A stretch of DNA of 7,233 nt from a virus (lineage: Duplodnaviria > Heunggongvirae > Uroviricota > Caudoviricetes), in the IMG/VR virus record IMGVR_UViG_2531839030_000007, one strand, 5' to 3'. Made by a program: the position numbers and the translations under genes. The notes beneath the pieces are model-generated. The model made no database searches and was not told where the DNA came from. It was given only the letters and a program-made list of their open reading frames with translations. Position 1 is the first letter of the stretch. Each line of letters starts with the position of its first letter. Shown piece by piece: positions 190 through 7,233 of this stretch.

Positions 190-606
190 GTGGCTGTTTT
201 CAACAGTAATGAGGCATCGTGGCATCTCGTTGAAGATCATCGGGGTAAAACGGTTTATGACGTGGCTTCCGGCGACGCGTTATTTATTTCTGAACTCGGT
301 CCGTTACCGGAAAATGTTACCTGGTTGTCGCCGGATGGAGAGTGTCAGAAGTGGAACGGCACATCCTGGGCGAAAGATGCAGAAGCAGAAAAACTGTTTC
401 GGGTACGGGAGGCAGAAGAAACAAAAAACAGCCTGATGCAGGTAGCCAGTGAGCATATTGCGCCACTTCAGGATGCCGTAGATTTGGATATTGCGACGGA
501 GGAAGAGGCATCGTTACTGGCTGCATGGAAGACATATCGGGTATTGTTGAATCGTGTTGATACAACAGTAGCAGCGGATGTTGAGTGGCCAGTCGCCCCA
601 CAATAA
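190..606 (+). CDS. tfa: Tail fibre assembly protein (Tfa family), 5'-truncated remnant; probably a pseudogene
   Basis: The translation (…[81 protein letters not shown]…VLLNRVD…) is near-identical to enterobacterial lambdoid/P2-type Tfa proteins as I recall them. The frame is open from 49 but has no ATG/GTG/TTG before the GTG at 190. The canonical Tfa N-terminus (about 16 residues, MAFRMSEQPRTIKIY in E. coli homologues) is not encoded; IS sequence takes its place. Stop is TAA at 604..606. Confidence 0.85.
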
Positions 607-613
607 AAAGAAA

Positions 614-641
614 AAGCCATCGACAGAAATATCGATGGCTT
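614..641. terminator. Bidirectional rho-independent terminator between the convergent tfa and acetyltransferase genes
   Basis: Perfect 10-bp inverted repeat AAGCCATCGA (614..623) / TCGATGGCTT (632..641) with an 8-nt loop. On the minus strand it is followed by TTTTTCTTTTTA, on the plus strand by TTATGTACTCTATTT. It lies 8 nt after the tfa stop and 9 nt after the minus-strand gene stop (650..652). Confidence 0.6.
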
Positions 642-649
642 TATGTACT

Positions 650-1222
650 CTATTTATACAATACAACACCACTCTTTTTAGTTATATATGTGCAGTTTGA
701 TGGTATATCTTTATTTATAAAAGACATTGCACCTATTTTTACATTATCCCCAATTTTACGTGATAATCCAATGATGCAACAATTAGCTCCGATATCAACG
801 TTACTACCAATTTTTACTCTTGAACTAGGCATATCACCATCTATCTGTCCAATGGTAGTATTCTGTCGTAATACCAGATTTTCACCCGCATCAACAGCAA
901 AATGAACAACAATTCCAGCATGATGGGGAATTGTCAACCCTTTTCCAATATTTGCGCCCAATCCTATTTCACAACCAAACTTGTTAATTATTTTACTGTT
1001 TAACTTTTTGGCTGCTTTCTTATGTAATTTATTACCATTAATATACATTTCGTTAGCCAACCGCCACCAGAAAAGGAAATTCCGGTTACGCTGCTTTTTC
1101 TCTCTTAAAAGCCTCCAGATATCCATACGTTTCCGCCGAATTACTTCATGTTTCCAGAAGTTTTTTAAATTAGTAGAGTTTCCAAATAAAACAAAGTGAA
1201 TTGCCATTAAGTAAGATAGCAC
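650..1222 (-). CDS. Hexapeptide-repeat (left-handed beta-helix) acetyltransferase, WcaB/CysE-like; AT-rich cargo gene
   Basis: The ORF is open 650..1255. Its translation carries the serine/sugar O-acetyltransferase signature FGCEIGLGANIGKGLTIPHHAGIVVH…GENLVLRQNTTIG…VKIGSNVDIGANCCIIG…IGDNVKIGAMSFINKDIP, preceded by an FWWRLA helical segment. Start is uncertain: GTG at 1222..1220 has AAGGAG 6 nt upstream (preferred); alternatives are GTG at 1255 and ATG at 1207. Hand counts of 60-nt blocks give about 25-32% G+C here against about 53% in a tail-gene block. Confidence 0.8.
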   Translation of the reverse strand: MLSYLMAIHFVLFGNSTNLKNFWKHEVIRRKRMDIWRLLREKKQRNRNFLFWWRLANEMYINGNKLHKKAAKKLNSKIINKFGCEIGLGANIGKGLTIPHHAGIVVHFAVDAGENLVLRQNTTIGQIDGDMPSSRVKIGSNVDIGANCCIIGLSRKIGDNVKIGAMSFINKDIPSNCTYITKKSGVVLYK

Positions 1223-1273
1223 GATAATCTCCTTAATTATTATTTCAGACCACACATGTTATAAGGTTAAGAG

Positions 1274-1302
1274 ATTATAAAATCCTGTTATTTGTTATTC
1301 AA
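1274..1302 (-). promoter_or_regulatory. Sigma70-type promoter for the acetyltransferase gene
   Basis: On the minus strand: -35 TTGAAT (1302..1297), a 17-bp spacer, and a perfect -10 TATAAT (1279..1274). There is an A/T-rich tract upstream of the -35. The predicted transcription start near 1267 lies upstream of the AAGGAG Shine-Dalgarno at 1234..1229. Confidence 0.45.
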
Positions 1303-1378
1303 AAACAATTTTCTGAGAAGGACATACAACAGCAAGTCGCCAGTCACCTTCATCAGGAAATTGGCGACATACGTTAAA

Positions 1379-1873
1379 TCAGAGCAGCCCCTTAACTGAG
1401 CTGGCCGCGCTATTAAGGGATGATGTCACCTTATCTTTGAAGCCGGACAGCATATCGCTGAACGATGAGGATTGCAGGCGCTCCCGCAAATCCTCATCAC
1501 AGCGTTCAAGAGTCAGTGAAAATTCTATCTTTTTCGCCTTACCGTAGCGATCAAACTCGGAGCGGGTCGTATTCGTTCCGGTCAGGACATACATGCCGTA
1601 AATCTGCCCGACGCCATCAATCAAAGGCCAAGGACGTCCTGTATATGCCTGCGTGGTCAACAACGACAGCGACACTTCGCCACCAGTAATCTCAGGATAA
1701 AGAACACCAGAAAGAACGATGCGATCATCACCTGCACCGATATACTGCCAGCTTGCTGAACGGTTAACGCGTTCATTTTTCACATGTCGCCAGCTTTTGT
1801 TTTGCTGTAACTGCTGATGCGGCAACGTGCGCAGCTCAAAAACAAACATGCCGTAGATCATCATCATGGCCAT
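1379..1873 (-). CDS. U: P2 gpU-like tail protein
   Basis: The translation shares blocks with P2 gpU as recalled (LSGVLYPEITGG, WPLIDGVGQIYGMYV, KIEFSLTLERCDE). GAGGAG lies just upstream of the ATG cluster at 1873..1861, and the upstream tape-measure fragment ends at 1880..1882. Stop is TGA at 1379..1381. Confidence 0.88.
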   Translation of the reverse strand: MAMMMIYGMFVFELRTLPHQQLQQNKSWRHVKNERVNRSASWQYIGAGDDRIVLSGVLYPEITGGEVSLSLLTTQAYTGRPWPLIDGVGQIYGMYVLTGTNTTRSEFDRYGKAKKIEFSLTLERCDEDLRERLQSSSFSDMLSGFKDKVTSSLNSAASSVKGLL

Positions 1874-1879
1874 GACTCC

Positions 1880-2716
1880 TCAATCTTTATCGTAAAAACT
1901 GCCACGCCTGGCACGGGCGCGCCGTTCCATTTCTGCCCTGACCATTTCGCCGACCAGTTTCGCCAGTTCGCGGGGATTCTGCGTAACAACGTTATGCAGA
2001 TGAACATGAATTTCACCGCCAAATCCGGAGGCAACAGGCTCCCGGTTACGGGAAGTTGCAGGAACTGATGCCACTGGCGATCGTATGGCCTCCACCACCG
2101 GGCGGGAGCTGGCCGCAACAACAGGGACCAGCGCCGGAGGCAGCGGAGCCGGGACCACGGGTGTGATATTAATTGCGGGGGCAGGCTTACTGACCTGCGC
2201 AATCTTCCGCTCCTGCCACTCCCCACGAACAGCAAGTGCGCGGGGCAGGTTCTTAAAGACAATATCGCCGGGGCCAATGCGTTTTTTTGTCTCATCAACC
2301 AGCTTACCTGTGTTATCAGCAATTTTGCTGAGTCTGCGTAGCGTGCCGGTATTGCTGTCTGTGAGAGGTTTGTTGTCTTTGGGTTTATCATCTCCGGTGC
2401 CATTGCTATTTCCCGCAGACTTCGGCGGATTGATTTTCGCAATGTCTCCCTGAAACAGAGCAACCTTGTCCTGAAGAATGGCCGCACGTTGTGCGTCTTC
2501 GATTTTCTTGCGCGCCCTTTCCGCTTCATCCGGAAGCACACCGAGTTTTTCAAGTATCCACGCCAGCGTATCCAGCAACATTTTTGCAGGCGTCAGAACA
2601 AGCTGTAACGCACCACCAAGAACGTTACCGAATACCTCGCCAGCACTGGTACATTTATCCAGCGTTTCCTTGCTGGACTCCATCGGTGACAGCAGCGATT
2701 TAAACCAGTTAAACAC
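1880..2716 (-). CDS. T: Tail tape measure protein, C-terminal portion, out of frame with the N-terminal portion (frameshifted gene or pseudogene)
   Basis: A 278-codon ORF that overlaps the 3' end of the 708-codon tape-measure ORF in a different frame. It sits directly between the tape measure and gpU, as the tape-measure C-terminus does in P2. Its frame opens just after a TGA within the overlap. Confidence 0.75.
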   Translation of the reverse strand: MFNWFKSLLSPMESSKETLDKCTSAGEVFGNVLGGALQLVLTPAKMLLDTLAWILEKLGVLPDEAERARKKIEDAQRAAILQDKVALFQGDIAKINPPKSAGNSNGTGDDKPKDNKPLTDSNTGTLRRLSKIADNTGKLVDETKKRIGPGDIVFKNLPRALAVRGEWQERKIAQVSKPAPAINITPVVPAPLPPALVPVVAASSRPVVEAIRSPVASVPATSRNREPVASGFGGEIHVHLHNVVTQNPRELAKLVGEMVRAEMERRARARRGSFYDKD

Positions 2717-4719
2717 CTGGCTGAACCGCTTCCGATTACGTCAAAAACAGGGCCAAACCGTTCAAAGGTGTCGCGCAACGGGGTCAGCCTTTCCATAATC
2801 CCGCTGAACACCCCGGCAAAGAAAGCCCTGATAGGATCCCAGTATTTCCAGATAAGAACGGCAGCTCCGGCAAGCGCAGCCACGATAAGACCAACCGGAC
2901 TGAACAACGCCCCGATAACGCCTCCCAGTAAAGAAACGGAACCCGTCACCATTCCCCATAGCGCAGGTAACACCCTGACGACATTCATTGACCGGGTAAG
3001 AATGTCAAAACCAAGACGCAGGGTGGCCAGCTTCCCGTAAAGCACCCCAATAACCAGCGACAACGAGCCAATCGTTGCAGTCATTGCCAGCAACGCACCG
3101 CCTGCTATCAGTAGCTGGCGCGTCAGTACCGGATGGGCCTGCGCCAGCGAGGTGATTTTTTCAAGCACCCGCGTGAGCCACTGCGTGACAGAACGCAGCG
3201 GACCGTCAACCAGATCACTGATGCGAATACGAAGACCTTCCCATGCGCTGTCGAGATTTTTCAGGTCCCCATCAAGATTATCAGCCATTACTTTTGCGAC
3301 GCGATCGGCCTCTCCCCTTGCCCCCTGCAATTCTCTGGTCAGTTTTTGCAGCTCTCCTGAACCAGCCGCCGCAACAAGCGTCTGCAAACCAACGAACGCC
3401 TCTTCTCCGGCGATGTCCTTGAAGAAGGAGACCTGGTCCACCTGTCCGTATTTTTGTGTCGCCTTATAGAGATCAAGCAGCACATCCTCCATCGGGCGCA
3501 TTTTGCCTCTGGCGTCAGCAACTGACACCCCCAGCTCTTTCAGTGCATCAGCCGCAGCTTTTGGCGGTGATGCAAGGCGGGACAGACTTGCGCGCATGGC
3601 CGTGCCAGCATCGCTTCCGCGAAGACCATTATTGGCAAGCATCCCGGCCATGGCCGCCGCTTCTTCAAGACTGATACCAAGTTTTGCGGCAACCGGACCG
3701 GTATACTTCATGGTTTCGCCCAGCGCGCGTAAATCAGTATTGGTCCGGGTAAATGCTGCTGTCAGCGTATCGCCCACCCGGTCCATTTGATCGGCTGTCA
3801 GGTTGAACTGTGTGAGGATATTGGAGCCTATATCAGCCGTCTCGCCGAGTTCGACGCCACCTGCCAGCGCCATATTAAGAACACCGGGCAATGCGGCCTG
3901 AATGGCCTGCGGAGTAAAACCAGCCATTGCCAGAAAGCTCTGCCCACTGGCGGCATCACTCGCAGTAAACTGTGTTTCAGCAAGTTTTAACGCCTGCTCA
4001 CGCAGCGCCTTAAACTGCGGGCTGTTTTTGTCGATTCGCGTCAGTGCCTGAACGCGGGACATCTCTTTGCCGAACCCGATCGCAGGCTGCAAAAAACGCC
4101 CGGCAGCATAGCCGCCCGCCGCTGCCGCACCAATTGCCAGCGCACCACCTGTTTTCAGTTTTCCCGCGGTTTCCTGCGCGTGCGAATACCGCTCACGCGC
4201 CTGCGTTACACGCGCAAGCGCCTGCCGTTCGCGTTCAAGCTGGTTGTTGTATTGTTCGGTGCGTCTGATGGCCTGCTGAATGGTGTTATCGCTGCCTGTC
4301 AGGGAAATGCCGTGGCGTTTCAGCTCTCCGCCAAGTTCCCTCATTTTCTGAATTTCCCGTGTGCGCGATTCATTCAGGCGTTCAAGCCGGGTGCTTAACT
4401 GCTGCATCAGCTTTTGTTGTTTTTCGCTGAGCACTGTACCCGTGCGTTGTAACTGATTAAGGGCGTTAAGCTGGCGTCGTGCTTTCACGATGCCAGCATC
4501 CGCTTTACTGACAGCGTCGCGGGCGCGCTCAAATGATCGCGCCTGACGCTCGAGATTTTTGATCGCCCCCTGCGTTCGCTGGATGGAGTCACCAAACTGC
4601 CCCATCAGGCGGCGTGCGTTTTCGGCAGGTCGGGTCAGCCTGTCAACGGCGCTGAAAGCGACCCGGATATCAAGAGTCTTCATTGTCTGCATTCCCGCTG
4701 CGAAGTGCCGCCCGCTCAC
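2593..4719 (-). CDS. T: Tail tape measure protein, N-terminal portion (P2 gpT-like)
   Basis: A 708-codon ORF with coiled-coil-like Ala/Gln/Arg/Leu-rich segments and C-terminal hydrophobic Gly/Ala-rich stretches typical of tape measures, located between E/E' and gpU. The last roughly 45 residues (…GSGSARCLTGLNRCCHRWSP…) look out of frame. The true start is probably ATG at 4692 or 4683, overlapping the E' stop at 4670..4672, rather than GTG at 4719. Confidence 0.88.
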   Translation of the reverse strand: MSGRHFAAGMQTMKTLDIRVAFSAVDRLTRPAENARRLMGQFGDSIQRTQGAIKNLERQARSFERARDAVSKADAGIVKARRQLNALNQLQRTGTVLSEKQQKLMQQLSTRLERLNESRTREIQKMRELGGELKRHGISLTGSDNTIQQAIRRTEQYNNQLERERQALARVTQARERYSHAQETAGKLKTGGALAIGAAAAGGYAAGRFLQPAIGFGKEMSRVQALTRIDKNSPQFKALREQALKLAETQFTASDAASGQSFLAMAGFTPQAIQAALPGVLNMALAGGVELGETADIGSNILTQFNLTADQMDRVGDTLTAAFTRTNTDLRALGETMKYTGPVAAKLGISLEEAAAMAGMLANNGLRGSDAGTAMRASLSRLASPPKAAADALKELGVSVADARGKMRPMEDVLLDLYKATQKYGQVDQVSFFKDIAGEEAFVGLQTLVAAAGSGELQKLTRELQGARGEADRVAKVMADNLDGDLKNLDSAWEGLRIRISDLVDGPLRSVTQWLTRVLEKITSLAQAHPVLTRQLLIAGGALLAMTATIGSLSLVIGVLYGKLATLRLGFDILTRSMNVVRVLPALWGMVTGSVSLLGGVIGALFSPVGLIVAALAGAAVLIWKYWDPIRAFFAGVFSGIMERLTPLRDTFERFGPVFDVIGSGSARCLTGLNRCCHRWSPARKRWINVPVLARYSVTFLVVRYSLF

Positions 4720-5199
4720 GCCAGCTAACCACTTCGCCGGGCGTCATCATGAAGATTTCGGCGGGCGACCAGTTAAAAATAACGGCAATATCTGCCACAA
4801 AGTCTTCTATGTGCTCAAAGCACACAACCGTGATCAGGCTTCCGTCGCCTGTTCGTTCTTCCCGCCAGAGTCCGCACCGCTCAAAAAATTTACGGCAACC
4901 ACACATAACTGAATAAAGTCACGGGATGCCATTTTTTTGATCGTCACTTCATCCAGTCGCGGTGATGTCACGCGTGACAGCAGCGTAAACATGGATTCCG
5001 CTTTCAGATTCAGCACATCAGACAGCGACAAATCTCGCAGAGATCCAGCCTGCTCAATAGCCCCGGTGATCTCCACATACGTGATTTTTTCGCCGCCTCG
5101 CTCAATTGGTTGGGTAAGTTTTACACCACGCTCACTGGTTTCTTTCACAGTGTCAGTAACTACCGTGTTTTCGGTATCGATGTTTTTCGTCTCTTTCAT
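4670..5199 (-). CDS. Tail assembly chaperone E+E' fusion, made by programmed -1 ribosomal frameshift (P2 gpE+E'-like)
   Basis: The E frame (5199..4882) joins the -1 frame (4882..4670) at the slippery heptamer T_TTT_TTG. The -1 frame encodes …SPAEIFMMTPGEVVSWRER…, and the predicted fusion is about 176 aa. The arrangement of E, E' and T matches the P2 FETUD operon. Confidence 0.7.
4834..5199 (-). CDS. E: Tail assembly chaperone E (P2 gpE-like)
   Basis: A 121-codon ORF containing PIERGGEKITYVEI. AGGAG lies 8 nt upstream of the ATG at 5199..5197. It sits between the tube and tape-measure genes. Confidence 0.85.
   Translation of the reverse strand: MKETKNIDTENTVVTDTVKETSERGVKLTQPIERGGEKITYVEITGAIEQAGSLRDLSLSDVLNLKAESMFTLLSRVTSPRLDEVTIKKMASRDFIQLCVVAVNFLSGADSGGKNEQATEA
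4882..4888 (-). other. Programmed -1 frameshift slippery heptamer T_TTT_TTG for E/E'
   Basis: The minus strand reads AAT TTT TTG in the E frame (codons N104-F105-L106). The -1 frame is open from this point to 4670, and the E frame terminates 15 codons later at 4834..4836. Confidence 0.7.
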
Positions 5200-5253
5200 C
5201 AGGAAACTCCTTTCAGTCAGAGGCGACGCACTGCGCCGCCTGCATATTACTTA

Positions 5254-5766
5254 TCAGCCAAGCCCAAGCGCGGAACGGATGCGATCGGGCACAATGTCCT
5301 TGCCGTCCTTCCGGTAAATGAAGTTCAGCAGGTCAATCTCCCACAACGGGCGATCGTTAACACTCAGCTTGTAGTAGGTGTTTTTAATGGCGTAAGTGTG
5401 TGATGTGGCTTCGCCCTGTTTGGCTTCCCCCATATCAATTTCCGTCACACGTCCGCGCATTTCGACTTCATACAGGTCGCTTTCATCATCGGTGTAGTAT
5501 TCCCCCGCAAAACGCAGTAGCGTGCCGTCAATCGTGCCGCCATACTTCAGGAACAGCTCACGAACTGCGCCCCCCATGACAAAGCTCGCATCAAGCGCGG
5601 AGTCGTCCAGGCCGAGGTCAATACTTACCGCACCCATCATGCCACCACCCCGGTAGCTGTCGGTTTTGCGCGTCAGTTTAGGCAGGGTGACGGACGTCAC
5701 CTTACCCACTTCGTTTTCACCATCCACAAACAGCGTAAAAAAGCGAAGATGTTTTGGTACAGCCAT
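5254..5766 (-). CDS. FII: Tail tube protein (P2 gpFII-like)
   Basis: The translation contains VTLPKLTRK…YRGGGM…DLGLDD…LRFAGEY…EVEMRGR, matching P2 FII blocks as recalled. GGGAGG lies upstream of the ATG at 5766..5764, which overlaps the FI stop as TGATG. Confidence 0.93.
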   Translation of the reverse strand: MAVPKHLRFFTLFVDGENEVGKVTSVTLPKLTRKTDSYRGGGMMGAVSIDLGLDDSALDASFVMGGAVRELFLKYGGTIDGTLLRFAGEYYTDDESDLYEVEMRGRVTEIDMGEAKQGEATSHTYAIKNTYYKLSVNDRPLWEIDLLNFIYRKDGKDIVPDRIRSALGLG

Positions 5767-6950
5767 CAGGCACCTCCCAGCACCGCAAATGCGGGACCAA
5801 AGAATTCATCAGTAAACGACTGGTAAAGCTCCATGTCTTCCAGCGGAGGAACGGGCGTATATTTGTAGCGAATACGCACACGCCCCTGACGTAAATTCGT
5901 GGTGCTGTTATCCTCGATGTCATACCAGCACTCCGCGCCAATCAGTTTCCCGGCAGTAACCAGTGAATCCAGTTTTGCCCTGATGGCACTGATAACATCC
6001 TTCACGTTCGCAGGTGTCAGTGGACTGTCGATGGTTTCAAACTGCGCTTCCGCAATTGAATCAGCCAGCACCTGTGCGGTTCGGGTATACACCTCAAAGA
6101 TGTAGGCGTTCGTTTCCGGTGTGCGGTTGCCCCAGAAGCGGAACCCGTTGCGACGAATAATGGTCGTGATTTCTTTGTTGTTGAGGCTGTTGGCATCACT
6201 GTCTTCGGCCTGCAACGACCAGAACACATGCCTCGACATCCCAAGCACATTTTTAACCGGAACGTTGGACAGCGATTTGTGCCAGCCCTGCTCATGGTCA
6301 ATGTACGCACGAAGGCCGCACGCATAAGCAGGCGCGGGGAACGTTTCGTTTTTGCCACTTTTCAGGTTGTAGGCGATGAAGTCAGGCCATAAGAGCATCA
6401 CCTCACGTTCGTTGAATTTCTGGCGGTAGGTAATCGCCTCAGCCATCGTGTTACAACCATGACATGTGGCATACACAAACGCGCGCAGTTTACCCGCAAT
6501 CACGCACAGGGATTTTGTTACCGCCTCCGTGTCCAGCTCCGGCGCGGCCAGAATACGCGGACGGTATCCGATGCTTTCATCCTGCTCTGCAACAAGCAGC
6601 GCATACATCCCCGTATAGCTGCCGTCAGATTCAGAACCACCGATAACCAGTTGATCCTGCGTCTTACCGCCTTCTTCTTTGTGTTCAGCCACGCGAACGA
6701 CGATCACTTTTGTGCTCACCTGGTCTGCGATAGCCTTAAGCGCACGATAAAGCGTCCCCGTAGTCCCGCATTTTCCCAGCACGTCATTGACGCGGGTCAG
6801 CAGTGTGGGCTTGTTCAGCGGGAACAGCTCCGCGTCCGCATCATCTGCCGTTGCCACGATACCGATAACACTGGAATCAACATCATTAATCGCTGTTACC
6901 AGGTCGGTACTTTCCGTAACACGGGCACCATGAAAACGAGTTTCACTCAT
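5766..6950 (-). CDS. FI: Contractile tail sheath protein (P2 gpFI-like)
   Basis: The 394-aa translation carries P2 FI blocks (ADDADAELFPLNKP, KLRAFVYA, WPDF, EQGWHKSLSNV, RRNGFRFWGNRT, YKYTPVPPLE). AAGGGG lies 9 nt upstream of the ATG at 6950..6948. Confidence 0.95.
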   Translation of the reverse strand: MSETRFHGARVTESTDLVTAINDVDSSVIGIVATADDADAELFPLNKPTLLTRVNDVLGKCGTTGTLYRALKAIADQVSTKVIVVRVAEHKEEGGKTQDQLVIGGSESDGSYTGMYALLVAEQDESIGYRPRILAAPELDTEAVTKSLCVIAGKLRAFVYATCHGCNTMAEAITYRQKFNEREVMLLWPDFIAYNLKSGKNETFPAPAYACGLRAYIDHEQGWHKSLSNVPVKNVLGMSRHVFWSLQAEDSDANSLNNKEITTIIRRNGFRFWGNRTPETNAYIFEVYTRTAQVLADSIAEAQFETIDSPLTPANVKDVISAIRAKLDSLVTAGKLIGAECWYDIEDNSTTNLRQGRVRIRYKYTPVPPLEDMELYQSFTDEFFGPAFAVLGGA

Positions 6951-7161
6951 AGCTTCAGCCCCTTGTATCCGTTAAATGATTCGGCAACAATCATCACCCA
7001 CCACGCGCGTAATCTCACCCCTGCGCCGTTCTCCCGCCACGGCGACAACAAAAAGCAGTAACCCCCTCCGCACGCACATGCGACCATGCCGCACAGGGAG
7101 GGAACAGATGACCGACACCACCATGCAATTGCTCAGTCAGGGCACAGACCACGTGAAAGTT

Positions 7162-7233
7162 TGTTCGCCTTAACCATCCTGATATTTGCTCTGGAGACCA
7201 TTTCATCTCCAGCTTTTCCAGAACAAGCTTTCG
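7162..7233 (-). mobile_element. Internal fragment of an IS30-family transposase gene, truncated at about 7161; continues beyond the window end
   Basis: The minus-strand frame running through 7233..7162 encodes RKLVLEKLEMKWSPEQISGWLRRT, which matches the IS30 transposase segment (…LRKLVLEKLEMKWSPEQISGWLRRTKPRQK…) as I recall it, including the WSPEQISG hallmark. Below 7162 the frame continues as NFHVVCALTEQ…, which is unrelated, and no other frame continues the IS30 sequence. Confidence 0.6.

Follow-up and report, generated by a model that had tools for sequence, protein, structure and literature searches.

Prophages can encode O-acetyltransferases of surface glycans beside their tail fibre or spike genes, as seen for NeuO of CUS-3 and for Oac of Sf6 and phiV10. 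The Oac proteins are membrane acyltransferases, with a fold different from that of hexapeptide enzymes such as ECs_2638, the protein studied here. Another known system to which this locus can be compared is the phage moron, a concept linked to HK97 and HK022, the definition of which is reviewed in "The moron comes of age" (PMC3594210). In strain Sakai, Asadulghani et al. (2009) chose ECs2638 as a dispensable "moron" of prophage Sp13 and replaced it by cat, with a forward primer arm that begins at AAGGAG (PMC2669165); Sakai AH20 is an existing ECs2638::cat mutant. The place of ECs2638 as a moron of Sp13 is already known, as is its start codon in RefSeq, GTG1222. What is new here is an explicit promoter prediction with comparative support, a confirmation of the start codon by sequence comparison, and the finding, from the same comparisons, that the cassette is mostly encountered beside tail-fibre assembly genes, with conserved flanks around a variable core.

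The DNA analyzed (7233 nt, hereafter the window) is 100% identical to Escherichia coli O157:H7 chromosomes and is part of a defective P2-like prophage, Sp13 in Sakai and CP-933T in EDL933, located between yecA and leuZ. Sp13 is induced both spontaneously and by mitomycin C, and it lacks ogr, a homologue of which is found on Sp2. The gene order is as follows: an IS629 end, a truncated tail-fibre assembly gene tfa (190–606, plus strand; Pfam Caudo_TAP, E = 2.6e-40, and annotation), the cargo gene encoding the 190-aa acetyltransferase ECs_2638/WP_000954203.1 (650–1222, minus strand), the tail gene gpU (1379–1873, minus strand; Pfam Phage_P2_GpU), a frameshifted tape-measure gene, E′/E, the tube and sheath genes, and an IS30 fragment. 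All the genes from gpU to the sheath gene lie on the minus strand, gpU being upstream of the cargo gene on the same strand at a distance of 156 nt. The tfa gene is convergent with the cargo gene, and its N-terminus is truncated by IS629 in O157, while it is full length in O104:H4. The acetyltransferase ORF stays intact while the neighbouring prophage genes decay, and, among 5426 complete E. coli genomes, ~500 carry the cassette at 95–100% identity, with O26, O111, and O104:H4 represented.

The closest free phages are of the P88 type (Xuanwuvirus, Peduoviridae), and their match covers only positions 1373–7158 of the window. In P88, the FI–U block is natively opposite in strand to the fibre genes; an O157-specific inversion of this block was hence rejected, the orientation being the native P88/Xuanwuvirus layout. 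In P88, an alternative fibre gene, a tfa, and a DNA invertase gene, with no cargo gene, fill the space between tfa and gpU, and the gene of the window is therefore an insertion or a replacement at this place. The term cargo gene, used in the sequence-only reading, is well chosen, as the gene sits in a low-GC insert that the related P88 does not carry. This cassette (613–1322, minus strand) has 30–36% GC versus 48–52% in its flanks and spans the interval from the promoter to the terminator.

The left border of the cassette was placed by three comparisons: the homology to P88 ends at 1373, high identity to the L007 locus begins at ~1322, and the L002 type is no longer homologous beyond ~1304. 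In all three, the −35 hexamer described below falls within the cassette. Downstream of the gene, the cassette ends in a putative intrinsic terminator (603–642, minus strand), a 13-bp stem followed by UUUUUCUUUUUAUU, which is the best terminator-like site of the window (−21.3 kcal/mol, z = −6.6). As the hairpin also forms on the plus strand (−16.1 kcal/mol, z = −5.9), it would be common to the acetyltransferase gene and the convergent tfa. The layout of a separate transcription unit, as proposed for this gene from the sequence, is present insofar as a promoter-like site and the anatomy of a terminator can be recognized.

The L007 locus carries an allele in the same slot that is 71% identical to the window gene, and this identity is unevenly distributed. 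The promoter, the leader, and the first ~27 codons are 93–97% identical, and the last ~30 codons, the terminator, and tfa are 87–100% identical. The core of the ORF falls to ~60%, and the adjacent gpU region to 57% or less. With high identity at the promoter and leader and low identity at gpU, the promoter therefore travels with the cassette and not with the tail operon.

All the elements claimed upstream of the gene (TTGAAT, 17 nt, TATAAT, AAGGAG, 6 nt, and GTG) were recovered at their places on the minus strand. The −35 hexamer TTGAAT (1297–1302, minus strand) and the −10 hexamer TATAAT (1274–1279, minus strand) were read directly and are separated by a spacer of 17 nt (1296–1280). The site had been called a near-consensus sigma-70 promoter, which is right for the −10, with six matches out of six, and for the optimal 17-nt spacing, but not for the −35, which matches TTGACA at four positions out of six (TTGA). 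The site nonetheless combines a −10, a −35, and a spacer of 17 ± 1 nt, as housekeeping sigma-70 promoters do. We infer that the promoter would fire in vivo and, from the usual distance between the −10 and +1, that transcription would start at A1268/A1267 (1267–1268, minus strand), 6–7 nt after the −10. This predicted start corresponds to ~2700324–2700325 (minus strand) in EDL933 (NZ_CP008957.1) and to ~2605999–2606000 (minus strand) in Sakai (NC_002695.2), and the predicted leader up to GTG1222 would measure ~45 nt. No known RNA element was found in this leader, the only Rfam match being IS009, inside tfa. The spacer contains AATAACA twice, a repetition that is not conserved.

A loose consensus scan lists the candidate, yet it returned 6 sites in the window versus 5.7 expected, and a match at this threshold is therefore uninformative. 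A weighted score was also computed from position weights for the hexamers plus a spacer term, with frequencies of classical E. coli promoter compilations. On this scale, the candidate reached 15.2 bits and was the top site on both strands of the 7233-nt window (runner-up, 11.0). When the 200-nt stretch preceding the gene was dinucleotide-shuffled 500 times, ~3 of the shuffled sequences attained the same value (P ~0.006). The promoter-like site is thus real and better than chance, with a modest statistical support. Both hexamers are invariant in the 36 copies of the window type (10 haplotypes); a test for constraint on them, underpowered with 36 near-identical copies, gave P = 0.14 (12 of the 84 free positions polymorphic, none in the hexamers). 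The L002-type relatives carry TTAAAT and TACACT at the homologous positions, and no outstanding promoter site was found in them (P ~0.2, local shuffles). From the sequence evidence as a whole, we find it reasonably likely that the candidate promoter works and accounts for most of the transcription of the gene. The annotation of this promoter is by itself routine, that of a real but ordinary feature.

The start codon is more firmly placed. The Shine-Dalgarno sequence AAGGAG (1229–1234, minus strand) precedes the GTG start codon (1220–1222, minus strand; the RefSeq start) with a 6-nt spacer, ATTATC. Two other in-frame candidates were considered, a GTG at 1255–1253, 11 codons upstream, and an ATG at 1207. 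The predicted pairing with the 3′ end of 16S rRNA is −9.2 kcal/mol for GTG1222, +1.9 kcal/mol for GTG1255, and +0.6 kcal/mol for ATG1207, in line with the earlier remark that GTG1255 has no ribosome-binding site. The Shine-Dalgarno sequence is contained in a 23-nt block, TAATAATTAAGGAGATTATCGTG, that is identical in seven of the seven aligned loci, including the L002 type, in which the upstream DNA outside this block is ~25% diverged. The codon at 1255 varies by haplotype (GTG, TTG, ATA, or GTA), and the ATG at 1207 is ATA in the L002 type. Lacking both a ribosome-binding site and conservation, GTG1255 and ATG1207 were rejected as starts. The homologues in JL22, L010, L013, L019, and L024, whose upstream DNA is unrelated, share this first residue and have in-frame stops 3–42 nt ahead of it, and 30 of 48 homologues have an LFG motif at residue 11–12. 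When GTDB genomes were scanned with the Shine-Dalgarno block, only chance matches in unrelated taxa were returned. GTG1222 is hence very probably the start codon, as had been proposed: no other candidate has a strong ribosome-binding site, the codon at 1255 is variable, and the starts of the homologues agree. It had also been thought likely that the annotation begins 11 codons too early, which does not apply, since RefSeq already annotates 650–1222 (190 aa); the original Sakai annotation, an ORF of 477 nt, was too short.

We then compared the family across its genomic contexts. Its hosts are P2-like phages, P1-like phages (including a copy inside the invertible C segment), and phage-plasmids with a Mu-type baseplate. 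In JL22, a P1-like phage-plasmid, the homology to the window stops exactly at the start codon, and a different strong site, TTGACA-18-TAAAAT, is located 126 nt upstream (15.9 bits, P = 0.006); the authors of JL22 gave no explanation for the acetyltransferase gene either. Promoter-like sites were also detected in L010, at a prophage end beside hok (P ~0.05), and in the phage-plasmid L024 (P ~0.04). The sites of L021, L019, and the L002 type were unremarkable, and none was found in L013. Combined by Fisher's test, the eight contexts gave P = 2e-4, and the seven contexts without the window P = 2.4e-3. In L019, tfa and the sheath gene flank the homologue (67% identical), which is encoded on the other strand; being opposite to both flanking late operons, this copy is therefore not expressible by read-through. 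The gene is convergent with tfa in six of nine contexts, and in each of these the two stop codons are separated by a strong hairpin, which is unrelated from one context to the next.

The protein encoded by the gene belongs to PHROG 2154, annotated as of unknown function. Pfam gave a weak Hexapep match and no N-terminal SATase_N (PF06426). The best NCBIfam matches were to EpsC (76.2 bits versus a cutoff of 150), CysE (TIGR01172, 62.4 versus 210.65), and WcaB (54–56 versus ~195). The AF2 model (pLDDT 93) consists of five helices followed by a left-handed beta-helix, and the solved folds nearest to this model are CysE enzymes (TM ~0.72, 20–25% identity). The catalytic His aligns with that of CysE and is nearly invariant in the family (H100). 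In place of the serine-binding residues Asp161, Arg196, and His197 of Neisseria gonorrhoeae CysE, the alignment shows Pro, Ser, and Arg. A true CysE was rejected on these grounds, as the protein has 190 aa instead of ~270 and a shorter N-terminal region of five helices, scores below the TIGR01172 cutoff, lacks SATase_N, and has its serine-binding residues replaced. EpsC and WcaB, though among the best-scoring families, remain far below their curated equivalog cutoffs, so that these scores do not make the protein a member of either. The name given in RefSeq, "serine O-acetyltransferase", probably claims too much. With a dN/dS of 0.09–0.17, the gene is under purifying selection. Two other assignments were tried and rejected: no PADLOC family matched at E ≤ 0.01, which speaks against a known anti-phage defence system, and TRF found no tandem repeats in 600–1400, which speaks against a repeat switch of the NeuO kind.

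These observations can be assembled into a working scheme. Positions 613–1322 of the window would form a self-contained moron cassette in the P88-like prophage Sp13/CP-933T, in which the host sigma-70 RNA polymerase would initiate at about A1268/A1267 from TTGAAT-17-TATAAT. The ~45-nt leader would supply the strong Shine-Dalgarno sequence, translation from GTG1222 would yield the 190-aa hexapeptide acetyltransferase of CysE fold, and transcription would end at the strong hairpin common to the convergent tail-fibre assembly gene. With a promoter, a Shine-Dalgarno sequence, and a terminator of its own, such a cassette could be expressed without recourse to the activator-dependent tail operon. 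Of this scheme, the motifs, the start codon, the borders of the cassette, the purifying selection, and the recurrence in other phages are directly supported.

The hexamers could also be chance matches in AT-rich DNA and the gene be transcribed from upstream, by polymerases that run on from the tail operon after induction or that start in gpU. The tail genes had been expected to be under an activator-dependent late promoter. Upstream of the sheath gene lies a candidate site, TTGT-N13-GAAC (7048–7028, minus strand), 88 nt from the ATG, similar to the annotated P2 pF activator site TTGT-N13-CAAC, which is centred 82 nt upstream of FI; the exact P2 late-promoter pattern TGT-N12-ACA is absent from the window. 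This pF-like site makes the expectation plausible. Transcripts of this operon would have a short way to go, the acetyltransferase gene being on the gpU strand 156 nt downstream. Between the gpU stop codon and the promoter, an inverted repeat (1336–1368, minus strand) can form a hairpin (−24.1 kcal/mol for an 81-nt segment, z = −3.8), possibly a partial barrier to read-through; as it has no canonical U-tract, upstream transcripts may still reach the acetyltransferase gene. Among the starts that Cappable-seq of EDL933 lists downstream of annotated start codons, one at 2700792 (minus strand), present in five of eight conditions, corresponds to position 1735 of the window, inside gpU (PMC10469882). 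The listed part of the proteome of strain 86-24 includes sheath and tape-measure peptides, and the tail operon is thus not fully silent (PMC3210124). The loose scan, with no more sites than expected by chance, and the hexamers, not conserved in the L002 type, are likewise compatible with transcription from upstream. Against this, the weighted score stands clearly apart from the other sites of the window and from the locally shuffled sequences, and the promoter lies within the borders of the cassette. Homologues elsewhere are enriched for promoter-like sites, and one of them is antisense to its neighbours. The ribosome-binding site is also predicted to be somewhat less accessible in read-through RNAs (0.24–0.28 unpaired versus 0.47), a weak result. 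All in all, we regard transcription from upstream as unlikely.

Transcription from the promoter of the cassette could still be conditional. In E. coli, H-NS commonly silences foreign DNA that is rich in AT, and constitutive expression therefore does not follow from a good promoter. The promoter could be intrinsically active but silenced or made conditional via H-NS and Hha/StpA, and the gene would then be cryptic or condition-specific. The cassette, with its 30–36% GC in a background of ~50%, has the composition typical of targets of xenogeneic silencing, which is the theme of one report (PMC13502914). From gene order, the acetyltransferase gene presumably carries one of the tags Z2982–Z2986, and its newer EDL933 tag, to judge by those of its neighbours, is probably EDL933_RS14210; the listed rows of the 86-24 proteome tables include Z2991 and Z2987 and none of Z2982–Z2986 (PMC3210124), in keeping with silencing. 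None of the queried CP-933T tags appears in the listed rows of the tables of Landstorfer 2014, and the full-text literature on the ECs and Z locus tags of the gene returned a gene-loss table only. On the other side, a search of the cassette for the nucleation motif of H-NS, a weak test, gave nothing close, and the purifying selection and the intact ORF amid decaying neighbours suggest that the gene is in use. A silenced or conditional promoter seems to us a little less probable even than transcription from upstream. Constitutive expression in the lysogen, as put forward in the sequence-only reading, is an assumption, and at best a doubtful one.

If the promoter at 1274–1302 is active, ECs_2638 would be among the few Sp13/CP-933T genes expressed in the O157:H7 lysogen independently of induction. 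An exclusion or conversion function, as suggested in the sequence-only reading, would be plausible from the context. More speculatively, the enzyme might O-acetylate a surface glycan related to the receptor of the linked tail fibre, with conversion or exclusion as the outcome. The cassette might then be a receptor-modification module linked to the tail fibre, in which glycan acetylation would exclude related phages and the conserved promoter-leader and terminator-tfa flanks would serve as recombination handles to swap divergent catalytic cores across phage families. This reading, which we put forward as a tentative and rather improbable one, stems from the convergence with tfa in six of nine contexts, the mosaic between the window and L007 (flanks 93–100%, core ~60%), and the purifying selection. 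If autonomous expression and the linkage to tail-fibre genes are both true, the hypothesis that the enzyme acetylates a surface glycan or the receptor of a phage becomes concrete and testable.

The likeness to CysE, EpsC, and WcaB lies in the modelled architecture, N-terminal helices plus a left-handed beta-helix, and in the conserved catalytic His. Unlike CysE (~273 aa), the 190-aa window protein has no SATase_N and lacks the serine-binding Asp, Arg, and His. ECs_2638 resembles NeuO and Oac in being a prophage acetyltransferase encoded beside a receptor-binding module and, like NeuO, it is a hexapeptide-repeat enzyme; unlike neuO, its gene carries no tandem heptanucleotide repeats. As for the phage morons, their hallmarks are found at the sequence level, namely extra DNA compared to related phages, a deviant base composition, and a terminator of its own. 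The promoter of the Sp13 cassette, in contrast to that of the described morons, is a sequence prediction. With its extra DNA relative to P88, its deviant GC, its promoter-like site, its strong terminator, and its position among tail genes, the window cassette has the predicted anatomy of a textbook moron. The comparison with fun(Z), the lysogenic-conversion gene of P2, concerns position rather than the proteins, which are unrelated. The window gene occupies the slot between tfa and gpU, because the FI–U block is inverted in P88-type phages, and is there co-directional with the tail operon, unlike fun(Z). Both are non-essential cargo genes adjoining a tail-fibre assembly gene, and the L019 homologue shares with P2 fun(Z) the exact G–FI slot as well as the reversed orientation.

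Comparison of window positions 450-1322 with positions 3700-4773 of L007, a locus carrying a 71%-identical allele of the acetyltransferase gene in the same slot, revealed mosaic conservation. The promoter, the leader and the N-terminal codons are 93-97% identical between the two, and the C-terminal codons, the terminator and the tail-fibre assembly gene tfa are 87-100% identical. The centre of the acetyltransferase ORF shows only ~60% identity, with saturated dS, and on the gpU side the window and L007 are unrelated. This pattern, drawn from sequence comparison, suggests that alleles have been swapped inside a conserved cassette frame.

The same acetyltransferase gene was found in the P1-like phage-plasmid JL22 (L003, 4428-8775), within the invertible C segment, where it is flanked by two convergent tail-fibre assembly genes, adjoins cin and is preceded by a 590-nt AT-rich gap. 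The tfa-acetyltransferase pair recurs in a second prophage type, integrated at yfhH (L002, L016 and L017), where a remnant of an HTH/invertase gene, its C-terminal part, comes next. The remnant suggests that the cassette of the yfhH type formerly lay inside an invertible fibre segment that has since been deleted.

Published Cappable-seq of strain EDL933 reports a transcription start at position 2700792 (minus strand) of NZ_CP008957.1 in five of eight conditions (PMC10469882). It corresponds to window position 1735 on the minus strand, 132 nt within the gpU ORF (1379-1873, locus tag RS14215), and is preceded by a weak TTAACC-17-TATATC. RNAs begun there could reach the acetyltransferase gene. 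The -10 region of the cassette promoter (1271-1278) is perfectly complementary over 8 nt to the Shine-Dalgarno spacer (1224-1231), a pairing possible only in RNAs begun upstream of that promoter, in which the ribosome-binding site is predicted to be less accessible (~0.25 against 0.47). As the complementarity is not kept in the diverged relatives of the L002 type, it probably arose by chance. The promoter-like TTGCCA-16-GATAAT at 1201-1228 on the plus strand (10.8 bits) runs antisense to where the acetyltransferase gene begins and is directed at gpU; in this AT-rich DNA the match is likewise probably due to chance.

Rfam IS009 (RF02111) matched positions 371-569 of the plus strand, inside the 3′ half of tfa, with 191 bits, far exceeding its gathering score of 117. 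The tape-measure gene (1880-4719, minus strand) is split into overlapping ORFs (2593-4719 and 1880-2716) and is a frameshifted pseudogene in RefSeq; it is unbroken in the O104:H4 and O111 prophage copies. On the left, the window begins in an IS629/IS1203 terminus (1-75), which cuts short the fibre and tfa genes; on the right, it ends in the interior of IS30 (7161-7233). Through position 7160 the window matches Sakai and 86-24 without differences, after which it omits 903 bp found in both strains, comprising the rest of a gpD fragment and part of IS30.

Near this right end, a TTGT-N13-GAAC element lies at 7028-7048 on the minus strand, around which no prominent sigma-70-like site was found. The sheath ATG follows 88 nt downstream. 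The element is similar to the activator-binding site annotated for pF, a late promoter of P2, which reads TTGT-N13-CAAC and is centred 82 nt upstream of FI.
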